64,000 nt of DNA from an uncultured Bacilli bacterium (GTDB lineage: Bacteria > Bacillota_I > Bacilli_A > RF39 > UBA660): NCBI GenBank assembly GCA_910589375.1, contig CAJUTK010000002.1:3133-67132 (forward strand), given 5' to 3'. Positions within the stretch are counted from its first letter, which is position 1; each line of letters begins with the position of its first letter. A program made the translations under genes and the position numbers. Positions 1,612 through 17,688 of this stretch are shown piece by piece. The notes under the pieces were generated by a model. The model was not told the origin of the DNA and did no database searches. It saw only the letters and a list, made by a program, of their open reading frames with translations.

Positions 1612-1721
1612 AGTATCCTCCTTTTTTCATTAGTATTAAATTATATCATAAAAATAATAATTTGTCACTTTTTTGTATTAATGTGGCAAAAAAAGGGAAT
1701 AATAAATGCAGGGATAACGTA

Positions 1722-1751
1722 TTTACAATACCTATAATTTTATGTTATAAT
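1722..1751 (+). promoter_or_regulatory. Sigma-A-like promoter (TTTACA-18-TATAAT) upstream of the pilin-DUF285 gene
   Basis: tttaca at 1722-1727 and tataat at 1746-1751. Confidence 0.4.
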
Positions 1752-1784
1752 TCCTTATAGTATAGGATACTAGGAGGTATATCT

Positions 1785-3671
1785 ATGTATAAGAAAAAAA
1801 GTGAAGGATTTACATTAATTGAATTGCTAGCAGTAATCGCGTTATTGGCGCTTGTAGCTTTAATAGCTTATCCTATTGTTATTAATTCAGTTAAAAAAAC
1901 GGGAAAGAAATTATCTAAAGAACAAATTAATAATATTGAGGACGCAGCCAGAGATTATGCAATTAAACATGGACCAGAGGAGTGCAGTTGCATTTCAATC
2001 GAGGATTTACAAACTGGAGGATATTTGGATAAAGGAAAAATATCAGATCCAGATACTGGGGAACAATTAAATGGTTATGTTACTATCGAATGGGTAGAGT
2101 CTCAAAGCCAATATAGTTATAAATATGGAGAAAATTGCAATTGCTCTGGTACTTCTGTTGGAGGACAAATTCAATTAGTTTTAAGTGTTGATCCTGGAGT
2201 TATTAAAGAATCTGGATGGGCAACTTCTACTTTTGATGTTAATGTAAGAGGTAAAAATATAACTGGATATTCGTATTGTATATCAAGTACAGGTGAGTGT
2301 ACTCCAAATACAAAAGTAATTGGAACAAAAGGAACAATACCTATAACAAAAGATGGAACCAATTATGTATGTGCACAAGGAACAAATGGTGGTGGAGACG
2401 GATCAGTTGTATGTAAAACTTATAAGTTAGATATTTCAGGACCTGTATTTGCGTCAGAGTCTGTATACTTTGATAACTATGGGAAAACTGAGGATTATGT
2501 AAATGTGAATTATGGAACAGTACGCTGTGATAAGACAATTAGTCAATTAACATCAAATACAAATAAAGTTAATTGTACTGTAACTAGTGTCAATGGTAAA
2601 AAGACAGAAAAAGAATTAAATTTTATACCTAATACATTAAAAGCTGATGTTTCTGTAACTAGCTCTGATACTACTTTTTTAGGAGGAAGTTTAAAAAGAA
2701 ATAAAGTAAAAGGAATACATATAGTAAATCATAAAAATATACCAAGCGATGCTACTAGTTGGGATGTGTCACATCACCAAAATGGAAGTGTTATGGCATG
2801 GTATGGTGCACCTGATTCTAATGGATTATATGATGTATATATTGGTCAAAATGGTGGTGTAGTAGCAAGAAGCGGGGATTATTTATTTTCTTATTTTAAT
2901 CATGCTACAACAGTGGATGTACAAAAATTAGACACTAGTAGAGTATCTAGTATGTTATTGATGTTTTATGATAGTCAAGCCCCGATATTAGATGTAAGTA
3001 ATTTTGATACAAGTAAAGTAACAACTATGTATGGTATGTTTTCTAATGCTAAAGCAAGAACATTAAATCTAAGTAATTTTGATACAAGCAAAGTCACGAA
3101 TATGGCCCATATGTTTAATGGAAGTGAAGCTACAACGCTAAATCTAAGTAATTTTGATACAAGCAAAGTAACAACTATGTATGCTATGTTTCATCAAAGT
3201 CAAGCTCAAACATTAAATTTAAGTAATTTTGATACAAGTAATGTGACGAATATGGAGCGTATGTTTTTTAATAGTAAAGCAACAACAATAGATGTAAGTA
3301 ATTTTGATACAAGTAAAATAACAACTATGTATGCTATGTTTTATCAAAGCCAAGCTCAGACATTAAATTTAAGTAGTTTTGATACAAGCAAAGTAACAAA
3401 TATGGAGCATTTATTTAATAAATGCCAAGCAACAACAATAGATGTAAGTAATTTTGATACAAGTAAAGTAACAACTATGTATGCCATGTTTAATCAAAGT
3501 CAAGCATTAATATTAGATTTAAGCAGTTTTGATACAAGCAGTGTAACGAATATGGATTCTATTTTCAACGCTGCTAGAACTACAACAGGTTATGCTAGAA
3601 CACAAGCTGATGCTGATAAATTTAATAGCTCTATTGGTAAACCATCTACATTAACATTTACTATTAAATAA
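1785..3671 (+). CDS. ComGC-like type IV (pseudo)pilin N-terminal module fused to a Cys/Gly/Thr-rich linker and ~8-10 DUF285-like 26-aa repeats (SNFDTSKVTxMxxMF...)
   Basis: Prepilin class III signal MYKKKSEG|FTLIELLAVIALLALVALIAYP with E at +5. KKLSKEQI...IEDLQTGGYL resembles ComGC (LADLQSEGYV). The N-terminal ~115 aa are ~60% identical to the ORF at 9745. The C-terminal half is NFDTS(K/N)VTxM..MF repeats, resembling the Mollicutes DUF285 family. Confidence 0.7.
   Translation: MYKKKSEGFTLIELLAVIALLALVALIAYPIVINSVKKTGKKLSKEQINNIEDAARDYAIKHGPEECSCISIEDLQTGGYLDKGKISDPDTGEQLNGYVTIEWVESQSQYSYKYGENCNCSGTSVGGQIQLVLSVDPGVIKESGWATSTFDVNVRGKNITGYSYCISSTGECTPNTKVIGTKGTIPITKDGTNYVCAQGTNGGGDGSVVCKTYKLDISGPVFASESVYFDNYGKTEDYVNVNYGTVRCDKTISQLTSNTNKVNCTVTSVNGKKTEKELNFIPNTLKADVSVTSSDTTFLGGSLKRNKVKGIHIVNHKNIPSDATSWDVSHHQNGSVMAWYGAPDSNGLYDVYIGQNGGVVARSGDYLFSYFNHATTVDVQKLDTSRVSSMLLMFYDSQAPILDVSNFDTSKVTTMYGMFSNAKARTLNLSNFDTSKVTNMAHMFNGSEATTLNLSNFDTSKVTTMYAMFHQSQAQTLNLSNFDTSNVTNMERMFFNSKATTIDVSNFDTSKITTMYAMFYQSQAQTLNLSSFDTSKVTNMEHLFNKCQATTIDVSNFDTSKVTTMYAMFNQSQALILDLSSFDTSSVTNMDSIFNAARTTTGYARTQADADKFNSSIGKPSTLTFTIK
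2975..3565 (+). repeat. Tandem array of ~78-bp near-identical coding repeats (two alternating subtypes, ~156-bp super-period) encoding the DUF285-like repeats
   Basis: The unit aattttgatacaagtaaagtaacaactatgtatgctatgttt... recurs about 8 times with >85% nucleotide identity. Confidence 0.8.
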
Positions 3672-3704
3672 ATTGTGAAAAGAAAATGATAGGAGAGACG
3701 TTAT

Positions 3705-4301
3705 ATGAAAAATAGAATAGTATTAGCATTAGCAATCTTACTGTTAGTGATTCCAGTAGGTTGTGGAAAAAAGAAAGAGAATTTAACAGATGCTCAAAAG
3801 TTTGCTAAAGAGTACACAAATGTGTCAGAGGATAATGTATTTGTATATAGTACAGTGGATGAAATCATAGATATTTTAGAAAGTGGTACAGGGATTATTT
3901 ATTTAGGATCTAAAGATAATATATGGTCACAGGCATATGTAAAATACTTAAATGAAGTTGCAAAAGAAGTAGGAATAGAGAAAGTATACTATTTAGATAT
4001 TATAGAAGTACAAAAAAACAATACTGATAAATATTTAAAAATAGTAGAATCTGTAAAAGATTATCTACAATATGACGATAATGGTGAAAGGGTAATTTCG
4101 GTTCCAACTGTAATTGGAATGAACAAGGGATTTGTAGTAGGATTTAATGATGAAACTGCATGGAATACAAAAGGATATAGTAAGCCAGAAGAATATTGGA
4201 AAGAAGAAGAAATTTCAAAGTTAAAAAACAGATTAAGCGAAATGGCTAATGCAACGAAGTTTTGCATAGATTGTAATGAGGTCAATAATCCAGAAATTTA
4301 A
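3705..4301 (+). CDS. Lipoprotein of unknown function
   Basis: Signal peptide with lipobox LLVIPVGC. RBS ggagag upstream. Confidence 0.55.
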   Translation: MKNRIVLALAILLLVIPVGCGKKKENLTDAQKFAKEYTNVSEDNVFVYSTVDEIIDILESGTGIIYLGSKDNIWSQAYVKYLNEVAKEVGIEKVYYLDIIEVQKNNTDKYLKIVESVKDYLQYDDNGERVISVPTVIGMNKGFVVGFNDETAWNTKGYSKPEEYWKEEEISKLKNRLSEMANATKFCIDCNEVNNPEI

Positions 4302-4305
4302 ATTA

Positions 4306-4334
4306 AAAAGTCCACCAATAAGGTGGCTTTTTTA
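4306..4334 (+). terminator. Rho-independent terminator
   Basis: aaaaagtccacc-aataa-ggtggctttttt. Confidence 0.55.
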
Positions 4335-4400
4335 GTATAAAAAAGATTTCTCATGAAATCTACGAGAAACCTTATACTTTGAATAAACGTTGATGAATTC

Positions 4401-4565
4401 TTATTTTTTTCTTTGTTTATAACTATTGCACATAGTAGATTCTTTATCTTCGTTATGTCCGCAATTACATACTTTAATTTCTTTTAAATTGCATACACAA
4501 TCATCACAATTACAATGCTTGCAGTCAAATACGTTACATTCGATTTTTTGTGTTTTGTTTTCCAT
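4401..4565 (-). CDS. Cysteine-rich mini-protein (54 aa, 9 Cys; DUF1540-like)
   Basis: Reverse-strand translation gives MENKTQKIECNVFDCKHCNCDDCVCNLKEIKVCNCGHNEDKESTMCNSYKQRKK*. Too short to appear in the ORF track (<60 aa). Divergent from the activase operon. Confidence 0.45.
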   Translation of the reverse strand: MENKTQKIECNVFDCKHCNCDDCVCNLKEIKVCNCGHNEDKESTMCNSYKQRKK

Positions 4566-4630
4566 TCTATCACCCATTTATATTTTTAGCATATTTTAAT
4601 AATTTATACATATAGTATAGTGGTGATAAA

Positions 4631-5521
4631 ATGGACAAGGTAAAAATCGGAATACCAAGAGGAATACACTACTATTATTCTGGAATATTTTGGAAATATT
4701 TTTTTAAAAAATGTAATATTGATGTCATTTATAGTTCGAAAACGACTCATGAAATCTTAGAAATAGGTAAGTCTTTAGCGCCCGATGAAATGTGTCTTAG
4801 TATGAAAGTTTATTTAGGTCATATTTCTTCTTTGGAGGGAAAATGTGATTATATTTTAATACCAAGAATAGATAGATTTGATAATTATAATCAAACCTGT
4901 ACAAATTTTTTAGCAATTTATGATCTTGCTAATCACTATTTTAAAACTCCATTATTAAATTATAATATTGATAATAAAAATCATTTATTAGATGGATTAA
5001 TTGAAATAGGGGAAGTACTTCATCTTTCTAAAATGAAAGTGATAGAAGCTTATGAATATGCATGCCTAAAGGAAAGAGAATGGAGAAAAAGTAAAAATGA
5101 GGAACAAAAGAGAATTTTAAATGGAAAAGATAAAAAAGTTCTAATTGTTTCCCACGCTTATAATATTCATGATGATTTTATTGGTGGATCTATCTCTAGT
5201 ATGCTAGAACAAAATAAAATTAAAGTAGTTTATAGTAATTATTTTTTACCCGAAGAAACAAGTAAGATGTCAGAAAAATTGTCTAAAAGTTTATATTGGA
5301 AATATAGTAAAGAAAGTATTGGAGCAATTCCTTTATGTGAAAAGGTAAATGGAATTATATTTTTATCCACTTTTCCATGTGGGTTAGATTCTTTAGTGCA
5401 TGAGTTAATGATTCGAAAGATGGAAAAACCATATTTAAATCTTGTTATAGATGATTTATCTTCTATGACTGGGATAGAAACTAGAATAGAAAGTTTTGTT
5501 GATTTAATTGAGCAAGGTTAG
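4631..5521 (+). CDS. Activase-associated protein (DUF2229 / HgdB-like family)
   Basis: 296 aa. First gene of a three-gene operon ending in a BadF/BcrA/HgdC-type ATPase; family assignment rests on that architecture plus weak pattern similarity. RBS ggtgat. Confidence 0.4.
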   Translation: MDKVKIGIPRGIHYYYSGIFWKYFFKKCNIDVIYSSKTTHEILEIGKSLAPDEMCLSMKVYLGHISSLEGKCDYILIPRIDRFDNYNQTCTNFLAIYDLANHYFKTPLLNYNIDNKNHLLDGLIEIGEVLHLSKMKVIEAYEYACLKEREWRKSKNEEQKRILNGKDKKVLIVSHAYNIHDDFIGGSISSMLEQNKIKVVYSNYFLPEETSKMSEKLSKSLYWKYSKESIGAIPLCEKVNGIIFLSTFPCGLDSLVHELMIRKMEKPYLNLVIDDLSSMTGIETRIESFVDLIEQG

Positions 5522-6554
5522 TTATCCCCAAATGGGAAGTTATGGAGTTCCCATTTATTATTTATTAACTCATATATTGAAGAATGATATAGTAAAGCCA
5601 AGAGAGATTAGTTCCTATACGCTAGAGCTAGGAAGCAAATATAGTCCTGATTTTGTATGTACTCCTTTTAAGTATACTTTAGGAACTATGCTAGAATCTT
5701 TAGAAGAGGGAGCTGATTTTTTAATTCAATTAGGTGGTGGTTGCAGGTATGGATATTATCATGAATTGCAAGAACAAATTTTAAAAGATTTAGGGTATCA
5801 ATTTACTATGGTAAATTTAATAAGTGGGGGAAATAGAATATCTATAAAAAAACTTTTGAAAGAATATCCATTAGAAATTAGAAAGAAAAATTTAGTAAGG
5901 TATCTTTTAATAACAAAGAAAATGGTTATTTATATGGATAAAATAGATGCTTATATTAGAAAAAATAGGTGCTACGAAAAAGAAATAGGAGCATTTAATA
6001 AATTAAGAGATGAAATGTTAACAGAATTTTCTAATTGTAAGAGTTATATGCATTTACGTAGAGTCTATAGAAAATATTTGAAAAAAATGAAGAACATTCC
6101 TAGAAGGGATGTTAATAAAAAAATTAAAGTAGGAATTATAGGAGAACTTTATACTCTAATGGAACCTAAAGCTAATGAGGAGATAGAGCAATTATTAAAT
6201 GAAAGAGGTATTGAGTTAAAAAGGTATACGAATGTGACATATCTTTTATTTCAAAAAAGAAAGTCTGTTAAAAAGTATTTAAAAAATTTTTTTATTAAAT
6301 ATAGAATGGGTGCAGATGCCTTAGATAATATTCATCATACAAAAGAATTATGTGAAAAAGGATATGATGGGATTATTCATATGAAATCTTCTTTTTGTAC
6401 ACCTGAAATAGGAGCAATGCCTATTATAGAAAGTGTAGCGCAAGAATATAATGTTCCAGTTTTATTTTTTAGTATGGATACTCATACATCAGAAACAGGA
6501 TTTTTGACTAGAATAGAGGCATTTTGCGATATGTTAGAAATGAGGAAATCATGA
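5508..6554 (+). CDS. Activase-associated protein (DUF2229-like), second copy; start uncertain (TTG 5508 or ATG 5532)
   Basis: 348 aa. Overlaps the upstream stop. Typical paired arrangement with the preceding gene. Confidence 0.4.
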   Translation: MSKVSYPQMGSYGVPIYYLLTHILKNDIVKPREISSYTLELGSKYSPDFVCTPFKYTLGTMLESLEEGADFLIQLGGGCRYGYYHELQEQILKDLGYQFTMVNLISGGNRISIKKLLKEYPLEIRKKNLVRYLLITKKMVIYMDKIDAYIRKNRCYEKEIGAFNKLRDEMLTEFSNCKSYMHLRRVYRKYLKKMKNIPRRDVNKKIKVGIIGELYTLMEPKANEEIEQLLNERGIELKRYTNVTYLLFQKRKSVKKYLKNFFIKYRMGADALDNIHHTKELCEKGYDGIIHMKSSFCTPEIGAMPIIESVAQEYNVPVLFFSMDTHTSETGFLTRIEAFCDMLEMRKS

Positions 6555-7480
6555 GAGATTGTTATTTAGGAATAGATATAGGTTCCATTTCTACAAAGGC
6601 AGCTATCATAGATGCTGATTATAGAATATTAAGTTCTTGTTACATAGAGACAAATGGTAACCCCATAGAGGCAGTGAAAAAGGCAATTAAAATGGTTAGT
6701 ATTCCAGAGAACTATGTTTTAAGAGGAATAGGAACGACTGGGAGTGCCCGTAAATTAATTGGATTGTTATTAAATGCCAACATTGTGAAAAATGAAATTA
6801 CTGCGCATGCAATTGGAACGCTAACTTTTCATCCAGAAGTAAAAACTATTTTAGAAATTGGTGGTCAGGATTCTAAAGTTATTTTAATACGCAATGGTAT
6901 GATTAGTGATTATGCGATGAATACATTATGTGCAGCCGGAACAGGAGCTTTTTTATCAAGTCAGGCTAAAAGATTAGGAATAGATGTAAAAGAATTCGGA
7001 AATATTGCCTTAGAAAGTGATAATCCTGTAAACATTGCAGCACGTTGTACTGTGTTCGCAGAGTCTGATTTAGTTCATAAAGCTCAAGTCGGATATCCTA
7101 AAAAAGATATTGTTGCAGGCCTATGCAAATCGGTTGTTTTAAATTATTTGAATAATGTATGTAAGGGTAAAAGAATAGAAGGACCAATTATCTTCCAGGG
7201 GGGAGTATCTAAAAATAAGGGAGTAGTAAAATATTTTGAAGAAGAATTAAAGCAAAAAATATTGGTAGATGAAAATGGACATTTAATGGGAGCAATTGGT
7301 GTTGCAATACTTTCTTCTAAAGCAGAAAATAAAGAATACTATGACTTAAATATTGAAAATATTTCATTTAAAACAATCGGAAATGAGTGTAAGGGATGTA
7401 CGAATAGATGTGAATTACTAAGAATATATAGAAATGAAGAATTATTAGATACTTGGGGTAGTAAATGCGGAAAATATTAA
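6551..7480 (+). CDS. CoA-substrate-specific enzyme activase (BadF/BadG/BcrA/BcrD / HgdC-type ATPase, ASKHA fold) with C-terminal Cys cluster
   Basis: LGIDIGSISTKAAI phosphate-1 motif, EITAHAIG, EIGGQDSKVILI, CAAGTGAFL, and a C-terminal CKGCTNRCELL...CGKY. Confidence 0.7.
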   Translation: MRDCYLGIDIGSISTKAAIIDADYRILSSCYIETNGNPIEAVKKAIKMVSIPENYVLRGIGTTGSARKLIGLLLNANIVKNEITAHAIGTLTFHPEVKTILEIGGQDSKVILIRNGMISDYAMNTLCAAGTGAFLSSQAKRLGIDVKEFGNIALESDNPVNIAARCTVFAESDLVHKAQVGYPKKDIVAGLCKSVVLNYLNNVCKGKRIEGPIIFQGGVSKNKGVVKYFEEELKQKILVDENGHLMGAIGVAILSSKAENKEYYDLNIENISFKTIGNECKGCTNRCELLRIYRNEELLDTWGSKCGKY

Positions 7481-7570
7481 AAATGTAAAAATATTTATTA
7501 TTATATTTTAAGAATTGTAAAGTAAATTTGTGAAAGTATAAAATGGATGTTATAAAGTGTAAAATATCAT

Positions 7571-7599
7571 TTGACAAAAGAAACTTTATAGTGTATAAA
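7571..7599 (+). promoter_or_regulatory. Promoter TTGACA-17-TATAAA for topA
   Basis: ttgaca at 7571-7576 and tataaa at 7594-7599. Confidence 0.45.
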
Positions 7600-7626
7600 A
7601 TATAGTTAGACAAAAGGAAGTGGATT

Positions 7627-9660
7627 ATGCCTAAAAAATTAGTAATTGTGGAGTCCCCAAGTAAAACAAAACCTATTGAAAAATATTTAGGTGGAGATTA
7701 TAAAGTATTATCTTCTAAAGGTCATGTAAGGGATCTTTCAACAAAAGGGAAGTATGGTTTTGGTGTAGATATTGAAAATGATTTCAAACCAGATTACATT
7801 CCTATGAAAGGAAAAACAGCGGTTATTAATGAATTAAAGAAAGAAGCAAAAAAGGCCGATAGAGTATATCTTGCTACCGACCCTGATCGTGAGGGAGAGG
7901 CCATCTCTTGGCATCTTTTTGATACGTTAGGATTAAAAGAAGATAGTTACGATAGAGTAGTGTTCAACGAAATTACTCATGATGCAGTTATAGAGGCATT
8001 TAAAAATACTCGTAAAATTGATAAAGATTTAGTTAATAGTCAAGAGACTAGAAGAATATTAGATCGCATTATTGGTTTTCGTTTGAGTAAACTAATTCAG
8101 TCTAAAACAGATGGAAGCAGTGCTGGTCGTGTTCAGTCTGTTGCCCTTAAATTAATTGTAGATAGAGAAAGAGAAATAGAAGCTTTTAAAGCAGAGGAGT
8201 ATTGGACAATTACAGGAATATTCCCATCTTTTGAGGCAGAAATGTTCCAATATAATCATAAAGATATTGAAATAAAAACAGAGGCAGAAGCTAACGAGAT
8301 ATTAGGAAAACTTTCTAATACTTTTAAAATTGAAAGTGTTGATAAGAAAATTAAGCAAAAGCAATCGAAACTTCCTTTTATTACAAGTACACTTCAACAA
8401 GATGCATCTAATAAATTAGGATTTAATGCTAAAAAAACAATGCAAATTGCCCAAAAATTATATGAAGGAATTGAGTTAGAGGATGAGACTGTAGGTCTTA
8501 TTAGTTACATGCGTACTGATTCTACAAGACTTTCTCAGCAGTTCATTACTAGCGCTTATGCACATATTGAAAACAAATATGGGAAAGAATATGTTGGAAG
8601 TGTTAAGGTAACTAAGAAAAAGGAAAATGTTCAAGATGCTCATGAGGCTATTCGTCCAACTAGCATTAATAGAACTCCAGAGTCTGTAAGAACATTTTTA
8701 TCCAATGATGAGTTTAAACTTTATCGTATGATTTATTATCGTGCTTTAGCGTCTTTAATGAAGAGCGCAAAAACAGAAAATACAACAGTAATATTTGATA
8801 ATAATAATTATCAGTTTAAAACAACTGGTCAAGTAATCGTTTTTGATGGTTATTTAAAAGTATTTAAAGATTATGAAGATATTAAGGATAGTGAACTTCC
8901 ACCATTTGATACTTATCAATCCTCTGTAGTGGTATCTCAAGCAATTGAAAAGAAACAACATTTTACTTCTCCACCAGCACGTTATACTGAAGCAAAATTG
9001 ATTAAAGAAATGGAAGAATTAGGAATTGGAAGACCTAGTACTTATGCAACAACAATTGATATTTTAAAAAAGAGAAATTATGCAAATTTAGTTGAAAAGA
9101 AATTTGTGCCAACAGAGGTTGGATTTGAAATTACAGATAAATTACAGCAATGTTTTAGTCATTTAATTAATGTAGAGTATACTGCTAATATGGAGAATGA
9201 CTTGGATAAAATAGCAGAAGGAAATCAAAATTGGGTAGAGACATTACACAATTTTTATGATGAATTTGAGCCTGCTGTAAAGAATGCTTTTGATGCAATG
9301 CCAAAAAAGGAAGCTGAAAAAACAGGTGAAGATTGTCCAGAATGCGGAAGTCCACTCGTTATTCGTAAAGGAAAATATGGGGAGTTTGTTGCTTGTAGTA
9401 ATTTTCCAACTTGTAAATATATTAAGGCAGAACCAAGAGAAGTACAAGAAATTTGTGATTGTCCAAATTGTGGAGCTAAAATAGTGGAAAAAAAGAGTAA
9501 AAGAGGAAAAGTTTTCTATGGTTGTAGTAACTACCCAAAATGCAAAACTGCTTATTGGGATAGACCTACTGGAGAGAAATGCCCAGAGTGTGGTAGTATG
9601 TTAACCGAAAAGAAAAACGTCATTAAATGTAGTTCTTGTGATTATAAAAAAGAAGACTAA
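7627..9660 (+). CDS. topA: DNA topoisomerase I
   Basis: 677 aa. Toprim N-terminus LVIVESPSKTK...EGEAISWHL, active-site region YMRTDS, and three C-terminal C4 zinc ribbons. Confidence 0.9.
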   Translation: MPKKLVIVESPSKTKPIEKYLGGDYKVLSSKGHVRDLSTKGKYGFGVDIENDFKPDYIPMKGKTAVINELKKEAKKADRVYLATDPDREGEAISWHLFDTLGLKEDSYDRVVFNEITHDAVIEAFKNTRKIDKDLVNSQETRRILDRIIGFRLSKLIQSKTDGSSAGRVQSVALKLIVDREREIEAFKAEEYWTITGIFPSFEAEMFQYNHKDIEIKTEAEANEILGKLSNTFKIESVDKKIKQKQSKLPFITSTLQQDASNKLGFNAKKTMQIAQKLYEGIELEDETVGLISYMRTDSTRLSQQFITSAYAHIENKYGKEYVGSVKVTKKKENVQDAHEAIRPTSINRTPESVRTFLSNDEFKLYRMIYYRALASLMKSAKTENTTVIFDNNNYQFKTTGQVIVFDGYLKVFKDYEDIKDSELPPFDTYQSSVVVSQAIEKKQHFTSPPARYTEAKLIKEMEELGIGRPSTYATTIDILKKRNYANLVEKKFVPTEVGFEITDKLQQCFSHLINVEYTANMENDLDKIAEGNQNWVETLHNFYDEFEPAVKNAFDAMPKKEAEKTGEDCPECGSPLVIRKGKYGEFVACSNFPTCKYIKAEPREVQEICDCPNCGAKIVEKKSKRGKVFYGCSNYPKCKTAYWDRPTGEKCPECGSMLTEKKNVIKCSSCDYKKED

Positions 9661-9673
9661 TGATTTACAAAAG

Positions 9674-9711
9674 CAATTGTATTTCTAAAAAATACAGTTG
9701 TTTTTTTTTTC
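9674..9711 (+). terminator. Rho-independent terminator after topA
   Basis: caattgtattt-ctaaa-aaatacagttg plus a T10 run. Confidence 0.65.
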
Positions 9712-9744
9712 TAATTATGATAAATTGTAATAGAAGGTGAAGAT

Positions 9745-10104
9745 ATGAAAAAGAGTGATGGTTTTACATTAGTAGAATTAATGGCAGTAATTGCCGTTTT
9801 AGCGCTTATAGCAATAATTGCATATCCAATTGTTACAGGTGTTATTAAAACATCTGAGAAGAAATTATCTAAAGAGCAAATCCGTACTATTGAGGAAGCA
9901 GCGAGAACTTATACTATCAAGAATGGACCAGAAAGTTGTGGCTGTGTTTCTATCGCTGATTTGCAATCAAGCGGATATTTAGAGACTGGTAAAATAATGG
10001 ATCCAGAAACTGGTAATCAATTAACAGGGCAGGTTACTATTAAATGGTTAGAGGATAAAAAACAATATACCTATACTTATGGAACTAGTTGTGGGTGTAA
10101 TTAA
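9745..10104 (+). CDS. ComGC-like type IV (pseudo)pilin, stand-alone
   Basis: MKKSDG|FTLVELMAVIAVLALIAIIAYP prepilin signal with E at +5. SIADLQSSGYLETGKI matches the ComGC LADLQSEGYV region. Paralog of the 1785 N-terminus. Confidence 0.7.
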   Translation: MKKSDGFTLVELMAVIAVLALIAIIAYPIVTGVIKTSEKKLSKEQIRTIEEAARTYTIKNGPESCGCVSIADLQSSGYLETGKIMDPETGNQLTGQVTIKWLEDKKQYTYTYGTSCGCN

Positions 10105-10158
10105 GAGTCATTTAAAAAAGTGTGAAAAGCACTTTTTTCTTTTCAATTTAAACAAATA

Positions 10159-10187
10159 TTTACAACTTTTTTAATATATGTTAAAAT
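10159..10187 (+). promoter_or_regulatory. Promoter TTTACA-17-TAAAAT
   Basis: Sits just upstream of the MIP channel gene. Confidence 0.4.
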
Positions 10188-10212
10188 GAAATTGGAAGGA
10201 GAATGGAGAGAT

Positions 10213-11073
10213 ATGAAAAAATATCTTTGCGAGTTTTTAGGAACTTGTGTTTTGGTTTTATTTGGTTGTGGAGTTGCAGTAGTATCAAATGGAAATTTAG
10301 TTGCCACTGCTTTGGCATTTGGATTATCAATTGTAGCAGTTGCTTATACAATTGGAAAATATACAGGATGCCATATCAATCCTGCAGTTACATTTGCTAT
10401 GTGGATTGATAGAAGAATTACAACAAAGGATTTTGTTGGATATGTAATTGCTCAAGTACTAGGAGCAATTGCTGGAAGTGGACTACTTGTTTTAATAATA
10501 AATTCAACTGCTGATATTGACAAGTTAGCATTAGGTGCTAATACTTTTGGTGAGTTATCAGCTTCTGGTATTACTATGCTAGGTGCATTAATAGTTGAAA
10601 TTGTTTTAACATTCGTATTTGTGTTATCTGTATTAGGAATAACTAGAGATGAGAAAAAAGAAAATGTAGCACCAATTGTTATAGGTTTGTCTCTTGTATT
10701 AGTACATCTTTTAGGAATTGGATTAACAGGTACTTCAGTGAACCCAGCTAGATCATTAGCTCCTGCTATTTTCATGGGTGGTGAATATTTAGAACAAGTT
10801 TGGGTATTCATCGTTGGACCATTAGTAGGTGCAGCATTTGCTTCTTTAGCAATTTTCTTCATTGATTTTGAAGAGGATAATGTTCCAAAAAGTATTAAGT
10901 TAGAAAAAGAAATAGTAAGTGCAAAAGAGATTGAAGAATCTAAAGAAGAACCAACAGTAGAAGAGAAAAAAAATGTACCAACTATCAAGAATACTAAAGT
11001 TGATACAAAAAAAACTGGAACAAAAAAACCGAAAACTCAAAAGACAAATACAAAAAAAAGAACTAATAACTAG
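10213..11073 (+). CDS. MIP-family channel (aquaporin / glycerol facilitator) with a Lys/Thr-rich C-terminal tail
   Basis: Two NPA boxes (HINPAVT, SVNPARS) and 6 TM segments. RBS ggaaggag before the ATG at 10213. Confidence 0.85.
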   Translation: MKKYLCEFLGTCVLVLFGCGVAVVSNGNLVATALAFGLSIVAVAYTIGKYTGCHINPAVTFAMWIDRRITTKDFVGYVIAQVLGAIAGSGLLVLIINSTADIDKLALGANTFGELSASGITMLGALIVEIVLTFVFVLSVLGITRDEKKENVAPIVIGLSLVLVHLLGIGLTGTSVNPARSLAPAIFMGGEYLEQVWVFIVGPLVGAAFASLAIFFIDFEEDNVPKSIKLEKEIVSAKEIEESKEEPTVEEKKNVPTIKNTKVDTKKTGTKKPKTQKTNTKKRTNN

Positions 11074-11079
11074 TTCTTT

Positions 11080-12333
11080 TTATTTTTTTAAAAACTTTCT
11101 AATTTTTGGAAAGACTTTACGATATCCAAAGTATAGAATAGGATGAATAACATAATCGAATTGACCAATAAATTCCATATATTCTCCGCCAAATCTTTTT
11201 TTAAACAAATGAATTCCATACACAGTATTATCTTTTTCTGGTTCTCCAGTTGTACCAAAGAAATCAACTGTTTGATATCCTTCTTTTACTGCATCTTCAA
11301 TGATTTGATAGTATAGCCAATAGTTGGCATTTAAATATCTTAAACAAGTTCTATTTCCACCATGAATTGTCCAAACTTTACTTTGATATTTTGCAGTGAT
11401 AATAGCAGATAAAACCATTTCTTTTTCTGTAATATTTTCAAGTTCTTTTAATTCTGATTCATTTTTTTCTAATTGTTGATTCAATTCTTTTAATTTGATT
11501 GCTACTTTCTCTTGATTTTTCTTTTCATCTTTTACACTTGCTAATTTTATTTCTTCATGAATAACTTTAATTTTTTCTTCATAATTTTTTTTCAATTCTT
11601 CAATATTTACTTTTACAAGGTAGATATCACTCATATTTTGTTCATGAAGTTTTTCATAAAAATTTTCATAGTATCCAATAGGAGAAAGTACAAGATTTTC
11701 TCTTTCTGCAGTTTCAATCATAGTATCGTAAAAGTCTTTTATATCTTCTTTGGTACCTTTATAAATATCTAAGTGATAGATATTTCCTCTATTAATAATT
11801 TTTCTAGTAGTAGGGTGCATATTTTTTCTAATGTCTTCTATTCCTTTACTAATATCAAGTCTAAAGGTATAACGTGGTTGATCGTTTTCAAAATTTTTAT
11901 TAAATCCACTATGTTTAAACCCCATCTTTTTTAAGGTGTCAACTAATTCATAATTTAGTGGTTCTAATATATTTCCATCACTATCTAGTTTTTGAAGTGG
12001 AATATCTGGATCAATTCTTAAAAAAAGACCATGCTTTTTTTTGCAGTATTTTTTTAAAAAAGTGGAAAATTCTTTTAAGATTTCTTTGTTTTGATAGTCA
12101 CATACAAATCCTCTAGGACAGTAGAAAAAGGAATATTTACTAATTAAATGTTTTTCTAATAATAGTGCAGTGGCAATTAATTTTCCGTCTTGTTTCATTC
12201 CTAAATAGTGAGGTTTAAAATGTTTAAAACTACTTACATTTCCCCAATAATAGGATTGCATAAAGTGTCCTTTTTTACTTTTATTTACAAATTCTTCAAA
12301 TTCTTTTTCCTTTAAGTTTTCTATAAATTCCAT
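11080..12333 (-). CDS. FemAB-family peptidoglycan bridge-formation protein (second paralog, with a coiled-coil insert)
   Basis: 417 aa. QSYYWGNV... N-terminus and a ~60-aa Lys/Glu coiled-coil arm, as in FemA/FemB. Confidence 0.65.
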   Translation of the reverse strand: MEFIENLKEKEFEEFVNKSKKGHFMQSYYWGNVSSFKHFKPHYLGMKQDGKLIATALLLEKHLISKYSFFYCPRGFVCDYQNKEILKEFSTFLKKYCKKKHGLFLRIDPDIPLQKLDSDGNILEPLNYELVDTLKKMGFKHSGFNKNFENDQPRYTFRLDISKGIEDIRKNMHPTTRKIINRGNIYHLDIYKGTKEDIKDFYDTMIETAERENLVLSPIGYYENFYEKLHEQNMSDIYLVKVNIEELKKNYEEKIKVIHEEIKLASVKDEKKNQEKVAIKLKELNQQLEKNESELKELENITEKEMVLSAIITAKYQSKVWTIHGGNRTCLRYLNANYWLYYQIIEDAVKEGYQTVDFFGTTGEPEKDNTVYGIHLFKKRFGGEYMEFIGQFDYVIHPILYFGYRKVFPKIRKFLKK

Positions 12334-12426
12334 ATTTTACACATCCATTCTTTTTTATTATACCAAAAAAATGCTAAATGGAACATCTTTTTTAGTAGAA
12401 CATACATTATAAGTAGTAGGTGAAAT

Positions 12427-13161
12427 ATGAGTGTATATATGTTAGTTCTTATCTGTACATCAATTACTTTCTTTGCAACTGTACTAGGTTCTTTATTAGT
12501 TTTTCTGATAAGAGAAATGAATGAAAATATAGAAAAGATTTGCTTAGGGTTAGCAAGTGGAATCATGATTTCTGCATCTATTTTTTCTTTGTTATTGCCA
12601 GCTTTAGAGGATAGTAGTTGTCTATCTGTAATCATCAGCGTTTTGCTAGGTGGATTTTTAATTTTGGTAATGGATAAAATATTTTCTCATAAAGAAAAGT
12701 TACCTCAAAAAAAATCAATGTTCTTTTTAGCTGTAACTCTTCATAATATACCAGAAGGAATGGCTGTAGGACTCGCTTGTGCTCTTTCTTACCAAGTAAA
12801 CTCGGCAGTGACTCTTGCAAGTGCAGTAGCATTAGCAATTGGAATCGCTATACAAAATATACCAGAAGGAACAGCTGTTTCAATTGCTATGTTAGAACAA
12901 AAGAAGACAAAATTACAAGCATTTCTTTATGGGGTTATATCTGGTATTGTAGAACCTATTGCAGGTATTTTAATGGCAGTACTATCTCATAAACTAGCAA
13001 GCTTTATGCCGTTTTTCTTATCACTTGCAGCAGGAACGATGTTTTATGTTGTAGTTGACGAATTAATACCAAATAGTAAATCTGAAAAGAATAATAGTGG
13101 GGTTTTATCTTTTATGATAGGATTTGTAATTATGATGTATTTAGATGTAATGCTAGGATAA
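12427..13161 (+). CDS. zupT: ZIP-family divalent metal transporter (ZupT-like)
   Basis: HNIPEGMAVG and QNIPEGTAVS ZIP signature motifs; 8 TM segments. Confidence 0.75.
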   Translation: MSVYMLVLICTSITFFATVLGSLLVFLIREMNENIEKICLGLASGIMISASIFSLLLPALEDSSCLSVIISVLLGGFLILVMDKIFSHKEKLPQKKSMFFLAVTLHNIPEGMAVGLACALSYQVNSAVTLASAVALAIGIAIQNIPEGTAVSIAMLEQKKTKLQAFLYGVISGIVEPIAGILMAVLSHKLASFMPFFLSLAAGTMFYVVVDELIPNSKSEKNNSGVLSFMIGFVIMMYLDVMLG

Positions 13162-13188
13162 ACGAAATAACTTTATTTCGTTTTTTTA
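13160..13188 (+). terminator. Rho-independent terminator
   Basis: aacgaaata-actt-tatttcgtt plus a T-run. Confidence 0.6.
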
Positions 13189-13230
13189 TGGAAAGTGATG
13201 AAAATGTGATACAATGAATATGGTGGTAAT

Positions 13231-14196
13231 ATGAAGAAAAGAATATTTATTTGCGGTTGGATTTTTTTATTTTCTATATTTTTATTTTTGTGTTACCAAA
13301 TCACAAATCAAGAAATATTATCCATTGATTCTTTTTTTATAGAACATATTGTTTTAAATGGAAGAAGTGACAATTTAACCGTTTTTTTTAAGATAATTAC
13401 GTTTTTTTCTAGTGTAATTTTGCTTTTAGTTTTGACAATACTTATATTTGTCCTTTTGAAAAAGAAAGAAGAGAAAATGTATTTTTTAGGTCAATTTTTA
13501 GGCGTTGTTGCGATTAGTCAAGGATTAAAGTTTTTCTTTCAAAGGGAAAGACCACTATTATTATATCGGTTAGTGGAGGAGACTGGTTTTAGTTTTCCAT
13601 CAGGACACTCGATGGTAGGTTCTGCTTTTTATGGATATTTAATCTATTTGCTATCTAAATCTAAACTACCCAAAAGAAAGAGAATTCTTTTTAGTGTTGT
13701 ATTGACCATATTAATTGTTGGTATTGGATTTAGTAGGATTTATTTAGGGGTACATTATGCAAGTGATGTACTTGCAGGGGTTGTGTTAGGAATTTGTTAC
13801 ACTAGTTTATTCGTAATATATAAGGAGTATAAAGATAAGATGAAAAAGAAAAGTTTATTAAAGAGTTTCTATCATGCAGGTATAGGAATTTATAGTGCTT
13901 TTTTATCAGAACGTAATATGAAAATTCATGTTTCTGTGATGTTACTTGTTATTTTAGCTGGGATTTATTTTCAAATATCTTTCCAAGAATGGATGATTTG
14001 TATTATTTTATTTGGTGTTGTCATTTCAGCTGAAATAATGAATACAGCAGTTGAAACAACTGTTGATCTAGCAATGCCTAAACTTCATCCAAAAGCAAAA
14101 TTGGCCAAAGATTTAGCTGCTGGCGCAGTTTTAGTACTTGCTATTATTGCTGTGGTTATAGGGCTTATGATATTTTTGCCAAAGGTAAGTGGATAG
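13231..14196 (+). CDS. Fusion protein: PAP2 phosphatase (undecaprenyl-diphosphatase, BcrC-like) N-terminus + DgkA-family undecaprenol/diacylglycerol kinase C-terminus
   Basis: PAP2 motifs KFFFQRERP, PSGHS, SRIYLGVHYASD. The C-terminal 120 aa closely parallel B. subtilis DgkA (ERNMKIH...EIMNTAVE...AKDLAAGAVLVLAIIAV). Confidence 0.7.
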   Translation: MKKRIFICGWIFLFSIFLFLCYQITNQEILSIDSFFIEHIVLNGRSDNLTVFFKIITFFSSVILLLVLTILIFVLLKKKEEKMYFLGQFLGVVAISQGLKFFFQRERPLLLYRLVEETGFSFPSGHSMVGSAFYGYLIYLLSKSKLPKRKRILFSVVLTILIVGIGFSRIYLGVHYASDVLAGVVLGICYTSLFVIYKEYKDKMKKKSLLKSFYHAGIGIYSAFLSERNMKIHVSVMLLVILAGIYFQISFQEWMICIILFGVVISAEIMNTAVETTVDLAMPKLHPKAKLAKDLAAGAVLVLAIIAVVIGLMIFLPKVSG

Positions 14197-14430
14197 ATGA
14201 TGAAGAAAATCATAATTTTCCTTGTTTCTTTATTTGTTTTTCCAGTTTTAGTATTTGCTACAAAATATACGGTATCTAAAAATCCTGTAGTTATTGATAT
14301 TCCAGATACTTTTACAGTTTTTATATTAGATAATTATAAAGGAAATAAACAATTAGAAATGTATGACTTAACAGAAAATGATGTAGAAACTGTTTTTGAA
14401 CTTAATAGAGCTTACATGTATGCTATATGA
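14197..14430 (+). CDS. Small secreted/membrane hypothetical protein
   Basis: Signal-peptide-like N-terminus. May be one frameshifted gene together with 14396..14584. Confidence 0.3.
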   Translation: MMKKIIIFLVSLFVFPVLVFATKYTVSKNPVVIDIPDTFTVFILDNYKGNKQLEMYDLTENDVETVFELNRAYMYAI

Positions 14431-14584
14431 TATAGAAGATGGAATCGAAATTTTTGCGATAAAGTATTATTATATTGGAGATTTTAGAAAGAAAAGTAAT
14501 TCTGAAATAGAGGAAGTAATGAAAGAATATGTTTCTACTAGCGAAGAAAAAAATTTTAAGATAGTAGATAGTTTTATTCAATAA
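14396..14584 (+). CDS. Hypothetical small protein (possible C-terminal part of a frameshifted gene)
   Basis: Overlaps the previous ORF in another frame. Confidence 0.2.
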   Translation: MNLIELTCMLYDIEDGIEIFAIKYYYIGDFRKKSNSEIEEVMKEYVSTSEEKNFKIVDSFIQ

Positions 14585-14638
14585 ATTAATGGCTTACCTT
14601 TTTGTATTGTTGAGTATGATGCTAGTATTGCCAATATT

Positions 14639-14932
14639 GTGGACTATTTTACTGTTTTAAATAACGCCATATATATTTTTAAATTTCAATCTGTTAATTC
14701 ATTTACAGAGGAAGATAGAGAGATATTTAGAAATATTATGGATACGGTATCCATTTCTACAGAGATAATTCGTTATAATTATGTATCTATAATAGGAATA
14801 GTTCTTTTGGTAATAGCAGGAATTATTTTTCTAGTAAAAAGAAAAATGGACAAAACAAAATGTCCTTATTGTAAATTAAAAATTAATCCTAGGATGGAAT
14901 TTTGTCCAAGATGTGGCAATTGTATAAAATAG
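14639..14932 (+). CDS. Membrane protein with C-terminal zinc-ribbon (CPYC...CPRC)
   Basis: One TM helix plus a CxxC-x10-CxxC motif. Confidence 0.4.
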   Translation: MDYFTVLNNAIYIFKFQSVNSFTEEDREIFRNIMDTVSISTEIIRYNYVSIIGIVLLVIAGIIFLVKRKMDKTKCPYCKLKINPRMEFCPRCGNCIK

Positions 14933-14966
14933 AACTTTTTGTTCTATTTTTTTTGAATTAAAAAGA

Positions 14967-14995
14967 TTGACTTTCTAGTAAGCTCAATGTATACT
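14967..14995 (+). promoter_or_regulatory. Promoter TTGACT-17-TATACT
   Basis: Follows a terminator hairpin at 14929-14954. Confidence 0.4.
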
Positions 14996-15069
14996 ACTAT
15001 CTTGAATAATTCTACTTATATGTGACAAAATACGACTATTAGATTTAGTACAATTTAGTTGGTGATGAT

Positions 15070-15534
15070 ATGAAAAAATATTTATTCTCTATTTTTGTTG
15101 CATTAATAGTTGGCTTTGTTATGGCAAAGGTATTTTTAGAACAATATGATTCTTATCAAGGTATTAAATTTACTTCTAATTCGGGGGAAATGGTTTACTT
15201 TATTAAATTTAATTCTTATCCTTCTATAAAGGAAATGGAAAAAAATACGTTATCTCTTACCAATTATATTTATAAGAAAAATGTAGATGTTTATGATGTG
15301 TATATCGGAATAACAAATGATTATGAAAATTTAATTAAACTCAATAATTATTTTAGTTCTTTAGGGTATAATACTTTTACAGAGGAGTTTTTAATAACAA
15401 ATAAAGAATTCTTATTGGAGTTAAAAAATTATGATTCTATTTTAAAGAGTACAGAAGATACTGTTGTTATTTCTTCTATCAATAGTCAAATACTAGAAAA
15501 ATATGAGGAACTTATAAATGGTAGTAAAGATTAA
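15070..15534 (+). CDS. Hypothetical membrane-anchored protein
   Basis: N-terminal TM segment; no recognisable motif. Confidence 0.35.
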   Translation: MKKYLFSIFVALIVGFVMAKVFLEQYDSYQGIKFTSNSGEMVYFIKFNSYPSIKEMEKNTLSLTNYIYKKNVDVYDVYIGITNDYENLIKLNNYFSSLGYNTFTEEFLITNKEFLLELKNYDSILKSTEDTVVISSINSQILEKYEELINGSKD

Positions 15535-16210
15535 ACAATTACCACCTTTAGAAAGGCCTTATGAGAAATTAGAACTTTATGGTGTGGAGAGTTTGTCAAA
15601 TGAAGAATTATTAGCAATTTTATTAAAGACTGGATTTAAAGATATTTCTTCAAAAGAATTATCAAGTATGATTATTTCTAAAGTAGATTCTATTTCTGAT
15701 TTAAAAAGTTTATCTTATGAAAAATTAATTTCTATGAAAGGAATAGGAAAATCAAAAGCGTGCACTATTCTTGCTTCTATTGAGTTAGCTAGGAGAATAG
15801 AAGAAGATAAATATGAAATTAAGAATAGGAAACTAACCAGTAGTGAAATGGTGTATGAGTATTATAAATTAAAAATAGGTGATAAAAAACAAGAATATTT
15901 TTATGTTGTATACTTAGATAATGCTAAAAATATTATTCGTGATAAGTTACTTTTTATTGGGACTATCAATTATAGTGTTGTTCATCCAAGAGAAGTTTTT
16001 AAAGAAGCATATATGCTTTCTGCAAGTGCTATTATCTGTGTACATAATCATCCATCTGGAAATATATTTCCTAGTAAAGAGGATATTGAAATTACTCAAA
16101 AATTAGAAGAAGTAGGAATATTACTTGGTATAAAAGTTTTAGATCACTTGATAATAGGGAGTCAAAATTATTATAGTTTTTTAGAAAATAGAGATATAGA
16201 AAGAAGTTAG
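15518..16210 (+). CDS. radC: RadC-family (UPF0758) JAB/MPN-domain protein
   Basis: HhH region, then HNHPSG...PSKED JAMM-like motif. Classic position upstream of mreC. Confidence 0.8.
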   Translation: MVVKIKQLPPLERPYEKLELYGVESLSNEELLAILLKTGFKDISSKELSSMIISKVDSISDLKSLSYEKLISMKGIGKSKACTILASIELARRIEEDKYEIKNRKLTSSEMVYEYYKLKIGDKKQEYFYVVYLDNAKNIIRDKLLFIGTINYSVVHPREVFKEAYMLSASAIICVHNHPSGNIFPSKEDIEITQKLEEVGILLGIKVLDHLIIGSQNYYSFLENRDIERS

Positions 16211-16218
16211 GTGATACT

Positions 16219-17079
16219 ATGAATCGTAGGCGCGAAAATAGAAAGAAGTATATCATTTTAGTAAGTGTAATCATTTCTTTGCTTCTTTTATGGGTGACAG
16301 CTTATTCTATTGCAACAGATAGAAAGTTGACTATTGTAGAAAAAGCAATTAAAGATACTGTTTTAACAGTAGGGGATGTTTTAGCGACTCCTATTAGGTA
16401 TGTAAAAAGTAAATGGGAAATTCTTTCTAATAGTGAAGAAATCTATGATAAATATGAAGAAATCTTAAAAGAGCATAGTACCCTAGAACAATATGAAGAA
16501 ACGGTAAGAGAGTTGGAGGAAGAAAATAGTAAACTAAAAAAATTGATGGATTTAGATAGCTCTTTGTCTTCTTATGAAAAAATTCATGCAACAGTAATGA
16601 ATAGAAATATGAATTATTGGTTGGATTCTTTTACAATCAATAAAGGATCATCCTCTGGAATAGAAGAGAGTATGGCTGTAGTAGGAAATGGTGGTTTAAT
16701 TGGGTATATATCCCAAGTAAGTAATTATACTAGTACTGTTAAATTATTAACGAATTCTAATCTTTCTAGACCAGTTTCTGTTAAAATTCAAATTTCAAAA
16801 GATAAGTATGCTTATGGATTACTAACAGGATATGATAGAGAAAAGAAAGCATATGCTATAGAAGGTATTAGTGATTATGGACAAATACCAGTGAGTGCGA
16901 AAGTAACTACTACAGGCTTAAGTGACAGATTTCCTAGTGGATTATTAGTGGGATCAGTATTGGATATTCAAACAGATAGCTTTGATTTAGCAAAGGTAGT
17001 GTACGTAAAACCATCCACTGCTATAGATGACATTTCTTTTGTATCAGTATTAATACGTGAAGGAGATATTACAAAATGA
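16219..17079 (+). CDS. mreC: Rod shape-determining protein MreC
   Basis: N-terminal TM, coiled coil, then a beta-rich domain. Context radC-mreC-mreD. Confidence 0.7.
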   Translation: MNRRRENRKKYIILVSVIISLLLLWVTAYSIATDRKLTIVEKAIKDTVLTVGDVLATPIRYVKSKWEILSNSEEIYDKYEEILKEHSTLEQYEETVRELEEENSKLKKLMDLDSSLSSYEKIHATVMNRNMNYWLDSFTINKGSSSGIEESMAVVGNGGLIGYISQVSNYTSTVKLLTNSNLSRPVSVKIQISKDKYAYGLLTGYDREKKAYAIEGISDYGQIPVSAKVTTTGLSDRFPSGLLVGSVLDIQTDSFDLAKVVYVKPSTAIDDISFVSVLIREGDITK

Positions 17080-17588
17080 TTTTTCTAGTAATAATTTCTT
17101 TTCTTTTAGATGGAATATTTTTTAGTTCCCTAAATTCTAATACTTTATTTTGTCCATTATTTTCTATCCTTTCTATCTTAATAATTTATCCAATGCTTAT
17201 TAGTGATAATAACAAATATTATATTATTTGTGGAATTTTAGGAATACTATATGATATTTGCTATGCCAATACATTATTTTTACATTTCTTTATATTTATT
17301 GGATTTGGCATTTTTGTTTCCTTTTTATTTAGAAAAGTTTCTGTCAATGTTTTAAATACATATTTAATAGGAATATCAGGAATTGTATTATATAGATTAT
17401 TTCATGCTCTTTTTTTCGTTGGATTATTCTTTTCCAATTGGAGTTTAAATTTACTATTAAAGAGTATCTTTTCGTCTATCATTATAAATAGTATTTATTT
17501 ACTTTGTTTTTATTTTATAGCAAAAAAAATAAGAATAAATTTAAGAAAGAAAAAATATAAGTTGTTAAAAGTTCAAAAAAGCGAATAA
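17076..17588 (+). CDS. mreD: Rod shape-determining protein MreD
   Basis: Polytopic 170-aa membrane protein, translationally coupled to mreC. Confidence 0.55.
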   Translation: MIFLVIISFLLDGIFFSSLNSNTLFCPLFSILSILIIYPMLISDNNKYYIICGILGILYDICYANTLFLHFFIFIGFGIFVSFLFRKVSVNVLNTYLIGISGIVLYRLFHALFFVGLFFSNWSLNLLLKSIFSSIIINSIYLLCFYFIAKKIRINLRKKKYKLLKVQKSE

Positions 17589-17628
17589 TCATTCTAATAT
17601 TTTAGAATACATTTGTTCGATAAAACTA

Positions 17629-17657
17629 TTGACAACTTTTTTTATGCGTAGTATAAT
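17629..17657 (+). promoter_or_regulatory. Promoter TTGACA-17-TATAAT for recA
   Basis: ttgaca at 17629-17634 and tataat at 17652-17657. Confidence 0.5.
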
Positions 17658-17688
17658 GAAGTCATGAACAATTGAAGGAGGAAATGAT

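Follow-up and report, generated by a model that had tools for sequence, protein, structure and literature searches.

Two prepilin genes in a 64 kb window

A 64 kb stretch of DNA from an uncultured Bacilli bacterium (contig CAJUTK010000002.1; hereafter the window, whose numbering is used for all coordinates, listed features being on the + strand unless stated) carries two prepilin open reading frames (ORFs), the only ones recovered by motif and family-profile scans in six frames. One, at 9745-10104, encodes a protein of 119 amino acids (aa), referred to below as the short pilin; the other, at 1785-3671, encodes a protein of 628 aa, referred to as the fusion, in which a pilin module (aa 1-120; 1785-2144) precedes a large additional region. 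Their start codons are 7,960 bp apart. The exact locus was found again in many gut metagenome assemblies and in the metagenome-assembled genome (MAG) GCA_949443175.1, and the exact short-pilin sequence occurs on 94 contigs, the longest of 708 kb. Comparisons were made with 80 loci fetched from related genomes (L-numbers) and with homologous proteins (P-numbers).

Both proteins begin with a class III (prepilin) signal, consisting of a short basic leader ending in Gly, Phe at +1, Glu at +5 and ~20 hydrophobic residues. The leader of the short pilin is MKKSDG (9745-9762; junction MKKSDG/FTLVELMAVIAVLALIAIIAYP), with a mature start at F7, Glu at +5 and Pro at +22, and that of the fusion is MYKKKSEG (junction MYKKKSEG/FTLIELLAVIALLALVALIAYP). 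The residues G-1, F+1, E+5 and P+22 are invariant throughout the pilin family. Scores exceeded the cutoffs of the N-terminal models PF07963 (21.2 bits) and TIGR02532 (16.3 bits) in both cases, at 33.8 and 29.6 bits for the short pilin and 31.5 and 26.1 bits for the fusion.

The two proteins are paralogous over the whole pilin module

The original prediction, made from the sequence before this analysis, had put the identity between the short protein and the N-terminus of the fusion at ~60%. BLASTP gave an ungapped alignment of residues 2-118 (short pilin) to 4-120 (fusion), in which 75 of 117 positions were identical (64%) and 80% positive (E 7e-45), and the block that had been quoted in support (KKLSKEQI..IEEAAR..GPE.C.C.SI.DLQ.GGYL..GKI.DP.TG.QL.G.VTI.W) was present. 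A similarity limited to the hydrophobic segment had been named as the outcome that would overturn the proposed relationship. It was not observed: when the leader and the hydrophobic N-terminal part of helix alpha1 were removed, 51 of 81 residues of the heads were still identical (63%; E 9e-40). Because the heads alone retain this identity, the paralogy extends over the whole pilin module.

AlphaFold2 (AF2) models predict the same arrangement for the two modules. The model of the short pilin, built from an 18-sequence alignment, has a mean predicted local distance difference test score (pLDDT) of 83.5, with alpha1 at aa 9-60 (~52 residues) and a beta head at aa 65-113, made up of strands 65-69, 96-102 and 107-113 together with a short helix (70-75). 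In the model of the fusion (mean pLDDT 84.5), alpha1 spans aa 11-62 and residues 1-118 repeat the helix and three-strand pattern of the short pilin. An extended N-terminal alpha1 of ~50 residues is thus present in both models, these being predictions rather than solved structures. The closest solved structure by sequence profile was that of Streptococcus sanguinis PilE1 (8pfb; 1.6e-12), which matched in alpha1 only (query 8-78), as did the other PDB profile hits.

Cysteines occur at positions 65, 67, 116 and 118 of the short pilin (codons within 9937-9945 and 10090-10098) and at C66, C68, C118 and C120 of the fusion. Close relatives of the short pilin always have four, namely the CxC at 65/67 and Cys116, plus either Cys118 or a cysteine in strand beta2 ('NGCV'); distant relatives have two, the beta2 cysteine and an invariant C-terminal one. 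This pattern suggests one or two disulfide staples that would tie the C-terminus to the sheet, or alternatively a metal site.

A member of 349 aa in the short pilin's 90% cluster (P0139, P0143) was considered as a modular variant and rejected, since it joins an unrelated N-terminus to a full pilin on a 1.8 kb contig, as in an assembly chimera. Its unrelated N-terminal sequence was read as a Rossmann-type, epimerase-like enzyme, and a 224 aa member of the cluster corresponds to that part alone.

Architecture of the fusion and its companion gene

The pilin module of the fusion is followed by a linker of low pLDDT (aa 119-127) and then by two stalk domains predicted to be beta-sandwiches (Ig/FN3/PKD-like; aa 128-215 and 226-282; 2166-2630), as judged from the pLDDT and secondary structure of the AF2 model. 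A Foldseek search of the PDB with the fusion model yielded only weak FN3, PKD and Ig matches, all to these domains, and no DUF285 structure. The first stalk domain (about aa 128-222) is homologous to repeated domains in modular pilins of L014. At that locus, three tandem modular pilin genes (4804-12650 of L014; 796, 867 and 877 aa) carry repeated Cys-containing beta-sandwich domains. The C-terminal region of a 371 aa pilin of L011 is similar to the C-terminus of P0046, a protein with PF19789.

The remainder of the fusion (aa ~300-628; 2682-3668) belongs to the DUF285/PARCEL repeat class, its tandem ~25-residue repeats scoring far above the cutoffs, at 188.6 bits with PF03382 (cutoff 25 bits) and 207.1 bits with TIGR02167 (cutoff 30 bits; 8 repeats). 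The region is modelled with a pLDDT above 90 and short, regularly spaced beta-strands, and we read it as a solenoid. Part of it is encoded by 75 bp tandem DNA repeats (2961-3562; eight copies, 75% matches) with a 150 bp super-period at 84% matches, as detected by TRF. With a PF07963 N-terminus, a linker and a non-pilus C-terminal domain (PF03382), the ORF at 1785-3671 has the architecture of a modular pilin.

Downstream of the fusion lies a gene for a predicted lipoprotein of 198 aa (3705-4301), with the lipobox LVIPVGC, recognized by reading the sequence, and a C-terminal CIDC. It was present only in genomes that carry the fusion cassette described below. Searches for its family with Pfam at E<=5 and with phmmer against the PDB gave noise only, and the guess that it is thioredoxin-like was dropped as unsupported.

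The short gene is conserved and the fusion cassette is not

The gene order topA-pilin-aquaporin (MIP) is kept in L087, L090, L092 and L007. L087, a sister species, aligns with window positions 4398-20108 at 88% nucleotide identity, and its pilin, of 116 aa, is 64% identical to the short pilin. The fusion gene, the lipoprotein gene and their terminator make up a 2.7 kb cassette (1674-4397) that occupies the same site in the close relatives L092 and L093. In L087, blastn matched the flanks of the cassette at 86-88% identity; the cassette itself is absent and 47 bp stand in its place. The more distant L007 (topA 88% identical at the amino acid level) has the order BcrAD-topA-pilin-MIP, with no second prepilin gene within 10 kb upstream. 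L090 shows the same order from topA on; its contig ends at topA, so it was not scored for the cassette. The short gene is the conserved copy, and the cassette is missing at this site in two related species, L087 and L007, which at these loci have the short form only.

In a neighbour-joining tree of pilin modules, calculated without support values, the pilin module of the fusion was sister to the short pilin of its own genome (63% identity). Short pilins from other species are 44-56% identical to it, and the modules of P0020 and P0035, two proteins with a pilin-Ig-DUF285 organization, only 32-37%. The stalk and DUF285 parts of P0020 and P0035 are in the same domain order as in the fusion and 37-49% identical to them. 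Because the carrier matches the resident pilin and the non-pilin part matches other modular pilins, these comparisons indicate that the fusion gene arose by module exchange at the pilin/linker junction. The direction may have been either way: a duplicate of the resident pilin may have captured an Ig-DUF285 part, or an incoming modular pilin may have received the resident carrier. The proposal that a pilin paralog had acquired a repeat domain therefore holds as to paralogy and as to the grouping of the carrier with the resident pilin, and is too simple in that the same architecture exists in other genomes.

Synonymous divergence between the short pilin and the fusion module is high (dS ~1.0) and non-synonymous divergence lower (dN ~0.26; dN/dS ~0.25). 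A dS near 1 argues that the exchange is old, and the ratio argues that both paralogs are under purifying selection. The idea that the short pilin is a pseudogene or relic was ruled out by this ratio together with the kept synteny.

Divergence of the pilin and turnover of the repeats

In the comparison with L087, the neighbours of the short pilin show 80-100% protein identity and the short pilin itself 64%; the only other protein as low was MreD, which aligned in part only. This fast divergence fits a surface-exposed subunit that may be under diversifying pressure. When L092 is compared with the window, identity is 97% for the short pilin, as against 73% for the fusion and 77% for the lipoprotein, and the proteins from the first femAB through MIP are 95-99% identical.

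The fusion itself varies unevenly along its length. P0016 is 99-100% identical to it over residues 1-215, but identity falls to 59% in the DUF285 region; variants of 628, 652 and 707 aa were found. Near-identity as far as residue 215, followed by this drop and by variation in length, indicates that the repeat module is reshuffled or replaced between strains. The 75 bp repeats of the DUF285 region are under active turnover.

Transcription units

The short gene lies between two terminators. Upstream, 40 nt from the gene, the intrinsic terminator of topA (9669-9705; an AT-rich hairpin and T10; -13.9 kcal/mol, z -4.6) is kept in four species and marks the upstream boundary of the unit. Downstream there is a 10 bp AT-rich hairpin with a T tract (10114-10144; -8.6 kcal/mol, z -1.7), which is weak when taken alone; the hairpin is maintained by compensatory changes in L087 and L090. 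Between the topA terminator and a ribosome-binding site read from the sequence and kept across species (AGAAGGTGA; 9732-9740) is a stretch, ATTATGATAAATTGTAAT (9714-9731), that is identical in four species. The invariance of ATTATGATAAATTGTAAT and of the ribosome-binding site in four species contrasts with a coding-sequence identity of only ~60-64%. We regard ATTATGATAAATTGTAAT as a candidate extended -10 promoter or regulatory element. A consensus promoter scan found no strong -35/-10 pair upstream of the short gene.

The fusion gene is preceded by a promoter-like site (1722-1751) in which TTTACA and a TG-extended TATAAT are separated by an 18 nt spacer, an 11/12 match to consensus and a consensus match only. 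No hairpin was found in the 33 nt gap between the fusion and lipoprotein genes. A terminator follows the lipoprotein gene (4312-4326; a GC-rich 5 bp stem plus A/T pairs; -13.5 kcal/mol, z -4.1). Since there is no hairpin before the lipoprotein gene and a terminator only after it, the two genes are probably co-transcribed as a bicistronic unit. Both prepilin genes had been predicted to be monocistronic, each with its own promoter and terminator. The short gene, between its two conserved terminators, is plausibly monocistronic; the fusion gene lacks its own terminator, and that part of the prediction was not upheld.

Modular pilins are frequent among related genomes

Long prepilins are common in the clade. 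Of the 114 complete prepilin ORFs in the 80 loci, 44 are longer than 200 aa, and in three loci (L040, L068 and L073) a short pilin is accompanied by a modular pilin whose carrier is similar to the head of the short one (42-59% identity). A phmmer search with the head alone against 1.84 billion representative proteins gave 128 matches at E<=1e-3, ~7 of them spurious repeat proteins; true matches have the head at about residues 36-120. Of the 127 matches with an available sequence, 53 are of 200 aa or fewer and 74 are longer. Giant repeat proteins among the top matches (P0170 and others) were discarded as compositional false positives. Among the 120 best DUF285 homologs, conversely, only 9 begin with a prepilin sequence.

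These counts bear on a broader and more tentative suggestion, which we think possible but would not press: a single pilin head may serve as a general display scaffold in this clade, with duplication or gene conversion keeping each carrier matched to the resident pilin. Subunits that bear an adhesin could then co-polymerize with that pilin, perhaps on the shaft as well as at the tip. The pair in the window would be a clear example of a carrier kept matched to its resident pilin, being 63% identical to it and only ~30-37% identical to the carriers of fusions that are otherwise homologous.

Filament-assembly genes in related genomes

Scans of the window for a GspE Walker A motif, a His-box and a Peptidase_A24 motif found nothing. 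When PilB, PilT, PilC, PilD and PilM from the pil operon of Trichococcus (L026) were used in tblastn against the window and all loci, matches were confined to true Bacilli and to L044, L047 and L086. In L044, a homologous pilin is part of a PilB-PilC-pilin-PilD-pilin operon. A different set is present in L073 (6333-17472; Bacilli MAG RGIG4822), which encodes the Tad-like proteins AAA_31 (TadZ-like), T2SSE and two T2SSF; tblastn with these proteins gave no match in the window. From the PilB-type operon of L044 and the Tad-like operon of L073, it follows that the clade has more than one type of type IV filament machine. Five prepilin genes of the GFTLVE type are interspersed in the L073 operon; two of these encode modular proteins (470 and 504 aa), and the region also has a Wzy_C O-antigen-ligase-like gene, murG and ftsQ. 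A match to the GspE Walker A motif in L011 proved to be an unrelated 596 aa P-loop ATPase.

The short protein is probably not a ComGC pilin

The short protein had been described as ComGC-like. Taken literally, this would make it the ComGC subunit of a competence DNA-uptake pilus, and the fusion a ComGC derivative. The likeness is real in part: ComGC, too, is a monoderm prepilin, of ~100-120 aa, a range that includes 119 aa, and has the same N-terminal motif; the host is a relative of the monoderm Bacillota, with radC and recA in the window; and the ComGC model NF040999 gives a sub-threshold match. The scores of this model, 29.4 bits with the short pilin (model positions 2-77) and 27.0 bits with the fusion, are however far under the cutoff of 75 bits and no better than those of GspG, ComGE and ComGD, whose models score the same or higher, all of these matches falling in the N-terminal helix. 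The GspG model (TIGR01710) gave 33 bits against a cutoff of 88.85, at model positions 2-57 only. A comG operon context was not found either: the short gene stands between topA and the aquaporin gene, and no comGA- or comGB-type gene occurs in the window. Solved ComGC heads are purely helical, with three helices and no beta-sheet (PMC7212644), whereas the head predicted here, a model set against solved structures, is of alpha/beta type with three beta-strands and one short helix; moreover, no ComGC chain was recovered in a PDB profile search at E<=1. An adhesin-like extension of 500 aa would also be ill suited to a DNA-uptake pilus. None of the three ComGC features examined, model score, comG context and helical head, was thus observed, and we conclude from profile, gene order and model that the short protein is very probably not the ComGC competence pilin.

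A proposed filament with a displayed adhesin

We consider it reasonably probable that both genes encode type IV pilins, the fusion being a modular pilin that co-assembles with the short pilin for the display of an adhesin. From the features described above we infer the following course. A prepilin peptidase would cleave the short pilin after Gly6, and a filament machine encoded outside the window would polymerize it via alpha1. The fusion would enter the same filament through its carrier module, which could join because it matches the resident pilin, and would there present its strain-variable DUF285 domain as an adhesin, on a linker and two-domain stalk. The occurrence of homologous pilins inside the filament operons of L044 and L073 counts in favour of filament assembly.

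Several points weigh against this reading. Genes for a prepilin peptidase, an assembly ATPase or a platform protein were found neither in the window nor in those flanks of this and of sister genomes that were fetched. Foldseek against the PDB retrieved no solved pilin for either model (best E for the short pilin 0.75), and because of this the assignment of a pilin fold rests on predicted secondary structure and on the sequence likeness of alpha1. The tree that joins the carrier to the resident pilin is one without support values, the putative promoter of the short gene is proposed from conservation only, and the short pilin could be a minor rather than a major subunit.

Two other explanations were weighed in the light of these points. 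The prepilin signal might act as a secretion signal or membrane anchor only, with no filament formed, as in archaeal substrate-binding proteins with pilin signals. In its favour, both genes stand as orphans amid housekeeping genes, with no machinery nearby, and the abundance of large-domain prepilins in the clade (44 of 114 ORFs; 74 of 127 head representatives above 200 aa) has the look of general display. Such an anchor does not readily account for a 119 aa protein that has no cargo and yet keeps a conserved position and evolves under purifying selection, nor for the invariance of E+5 and P+22, which are features of the assembly interface; related MAGs, moreover, hold homologous pilins in filament-assembly operons, and we regard the explanation as unlikely. 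An equally low probability is assigned to the view that both proteins are minor pilins, the short one serving as a priming or tip subunit, and that the major subunit of the filament is encoded at another site, next to the machinery. The machinery, and perhaps further pilin genes with it, does lie outside the window, several pilin genes per locus are frequent in the clade, and the promoter match of the short gene is weak. Against this, the short pilin is small and simple, comes from a monocistronic gene with a strong ribosome-binding site and diverges faster than all compared neighbours except the partially aligned mreD product, features more typical of a major, surface-exposed subunit; and it is the short pilin, not another, that the carrier of the modular pilin copies. 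Less probable than either is the ComGC assignment considered above. Co-assembly of two type IV pilins, one of them modular, therefore remains the interpretation that we prefer.

Relation to known systems

The class of modular type IV pilins was established with S. sanguinis PilB, and its members proved to be widespread (Raynaud et al. 2021, PMC8179133). In S. sanguinis, PilB joins a pilin to a vWA domain and PilC joins a pilin to a lectin (PMC8179133). Dataset S1 of the same paper (PMC8179133) includes architectures of IPR012902 with IPR005046, the latter being DUF285 (PMC2996958): nine proteins have one DUF285 and four have three. The fusion resembles PilB and PilC in having a small IPR012902 pilin module, a short loop and a bulky non-pilus module for which adhesion is proposed. 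It differs from them in its graft of two Ig-like domains and DUF285, in its position outside a pil operon and in having a carrier 64% identical to a stand-alone pilin; it is also known from sequence alone.

A second parallel is provided by PilE1 and PilE2, the two major pilins of one heteropolymeric filament (PMC8179133); these paralogous S. sanguinis pilins co-assemble into type IVa pili (PDB 8pfb; PMC10628169). As in the window, the host is a monoderm, the leaders are short, and one genome has two paralogous pilins that could share a filament. PilE1 and PilE2, in contrast, are encoded by adjacent genes in a pil operon and bear no extra module, and the match to the window pilin is in alpha1 only, with no similarity detected in the head.

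DUF285/PARCEL proteins form a class of variable surface proteins in Mollicutes and other microbes (PMC2996958), and in Lactococcus deletion of the gene for a DUF285-containing surface protein lowered adhesion to polystyrene and mucin (PMC5071367). The fusion shares with this class, which NCBI names 'BspA family leucine-rich repeat surface protein', its eight 25-residue repeats, tandem DNA repeats and strain-variable content. Most such proteins are lipoproteins or have ordinary signal peptides or transmembrane anchors, and the prepilin N-terminus sets the fusion apart from them. The 'conserved pilin' of TANB77 (PMC11680825) was considered as a further parallel and set aside, as it comes from a different clade and a different gene cluster.

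The architecture class and pilin paralogy are already well known, and the current understanding of type IV filaments is unchanged by this locus. Its interest lies in the organisms and in the pair itself. Low-GC gut Bacilli of this kind are uncultured and occur in many gut metagenomes. A conserved short pilin and a strain-variable pilin-DUF285 protein are specific candidates for their attachment to the host, to mucus or to other microbes and for surface variation at the level of strains, and the pair offers a natural case for studying how a carrier module stays compatible with the resident filament subunit.

Other features of the window and its host

The window has a GC content of ~29%. MAGs with relatives of the pilin carry the labels uncultured Bacilli, Tenericutes or Candidatus Faecisoma, the last of which NCBI places under Mycoplasmatota incertae sedis. 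The genes around the prepilin genes are of a housekeeping kind and include tuf, femAB, a DUF2229/HGD-D/BcrAD trio, topA, MIP, a further femAB, zip, radC, mreCD, recA and rny. The two FemAB-family paralogs (361-1611, 416 aa; 11080-12333, 417 aa) lie on the minus strand, one at each side of the pilin region. Together with mreC and mreD, they point to a walled cell, despite the 'Tenericutes' label on related MAGs.

The segment at 11080-14196, which encodes the 417 aa FemAB, Zip and PAP2-DAGK, shows 99-100% protein identity with the sister species L087, compared with 80-95% for the flanking genes, and may be a patch of recent inter-species recombination. Two ORFs, at 35079-36809 (576 aa) and 41132-42247 (371 aa), had no Pfam match at E<=1e-3; they sit among genes for NUDIX, Ham1, UDG and histidine phosphatase proteins, of nucleotide-repair and housekeeping type. 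No tRNA gene was found in the window, and the sole Rfam match at the gathering threshold was a ribosomal protein L10 leader at 58837-58959 (RF00557, 77 bits).

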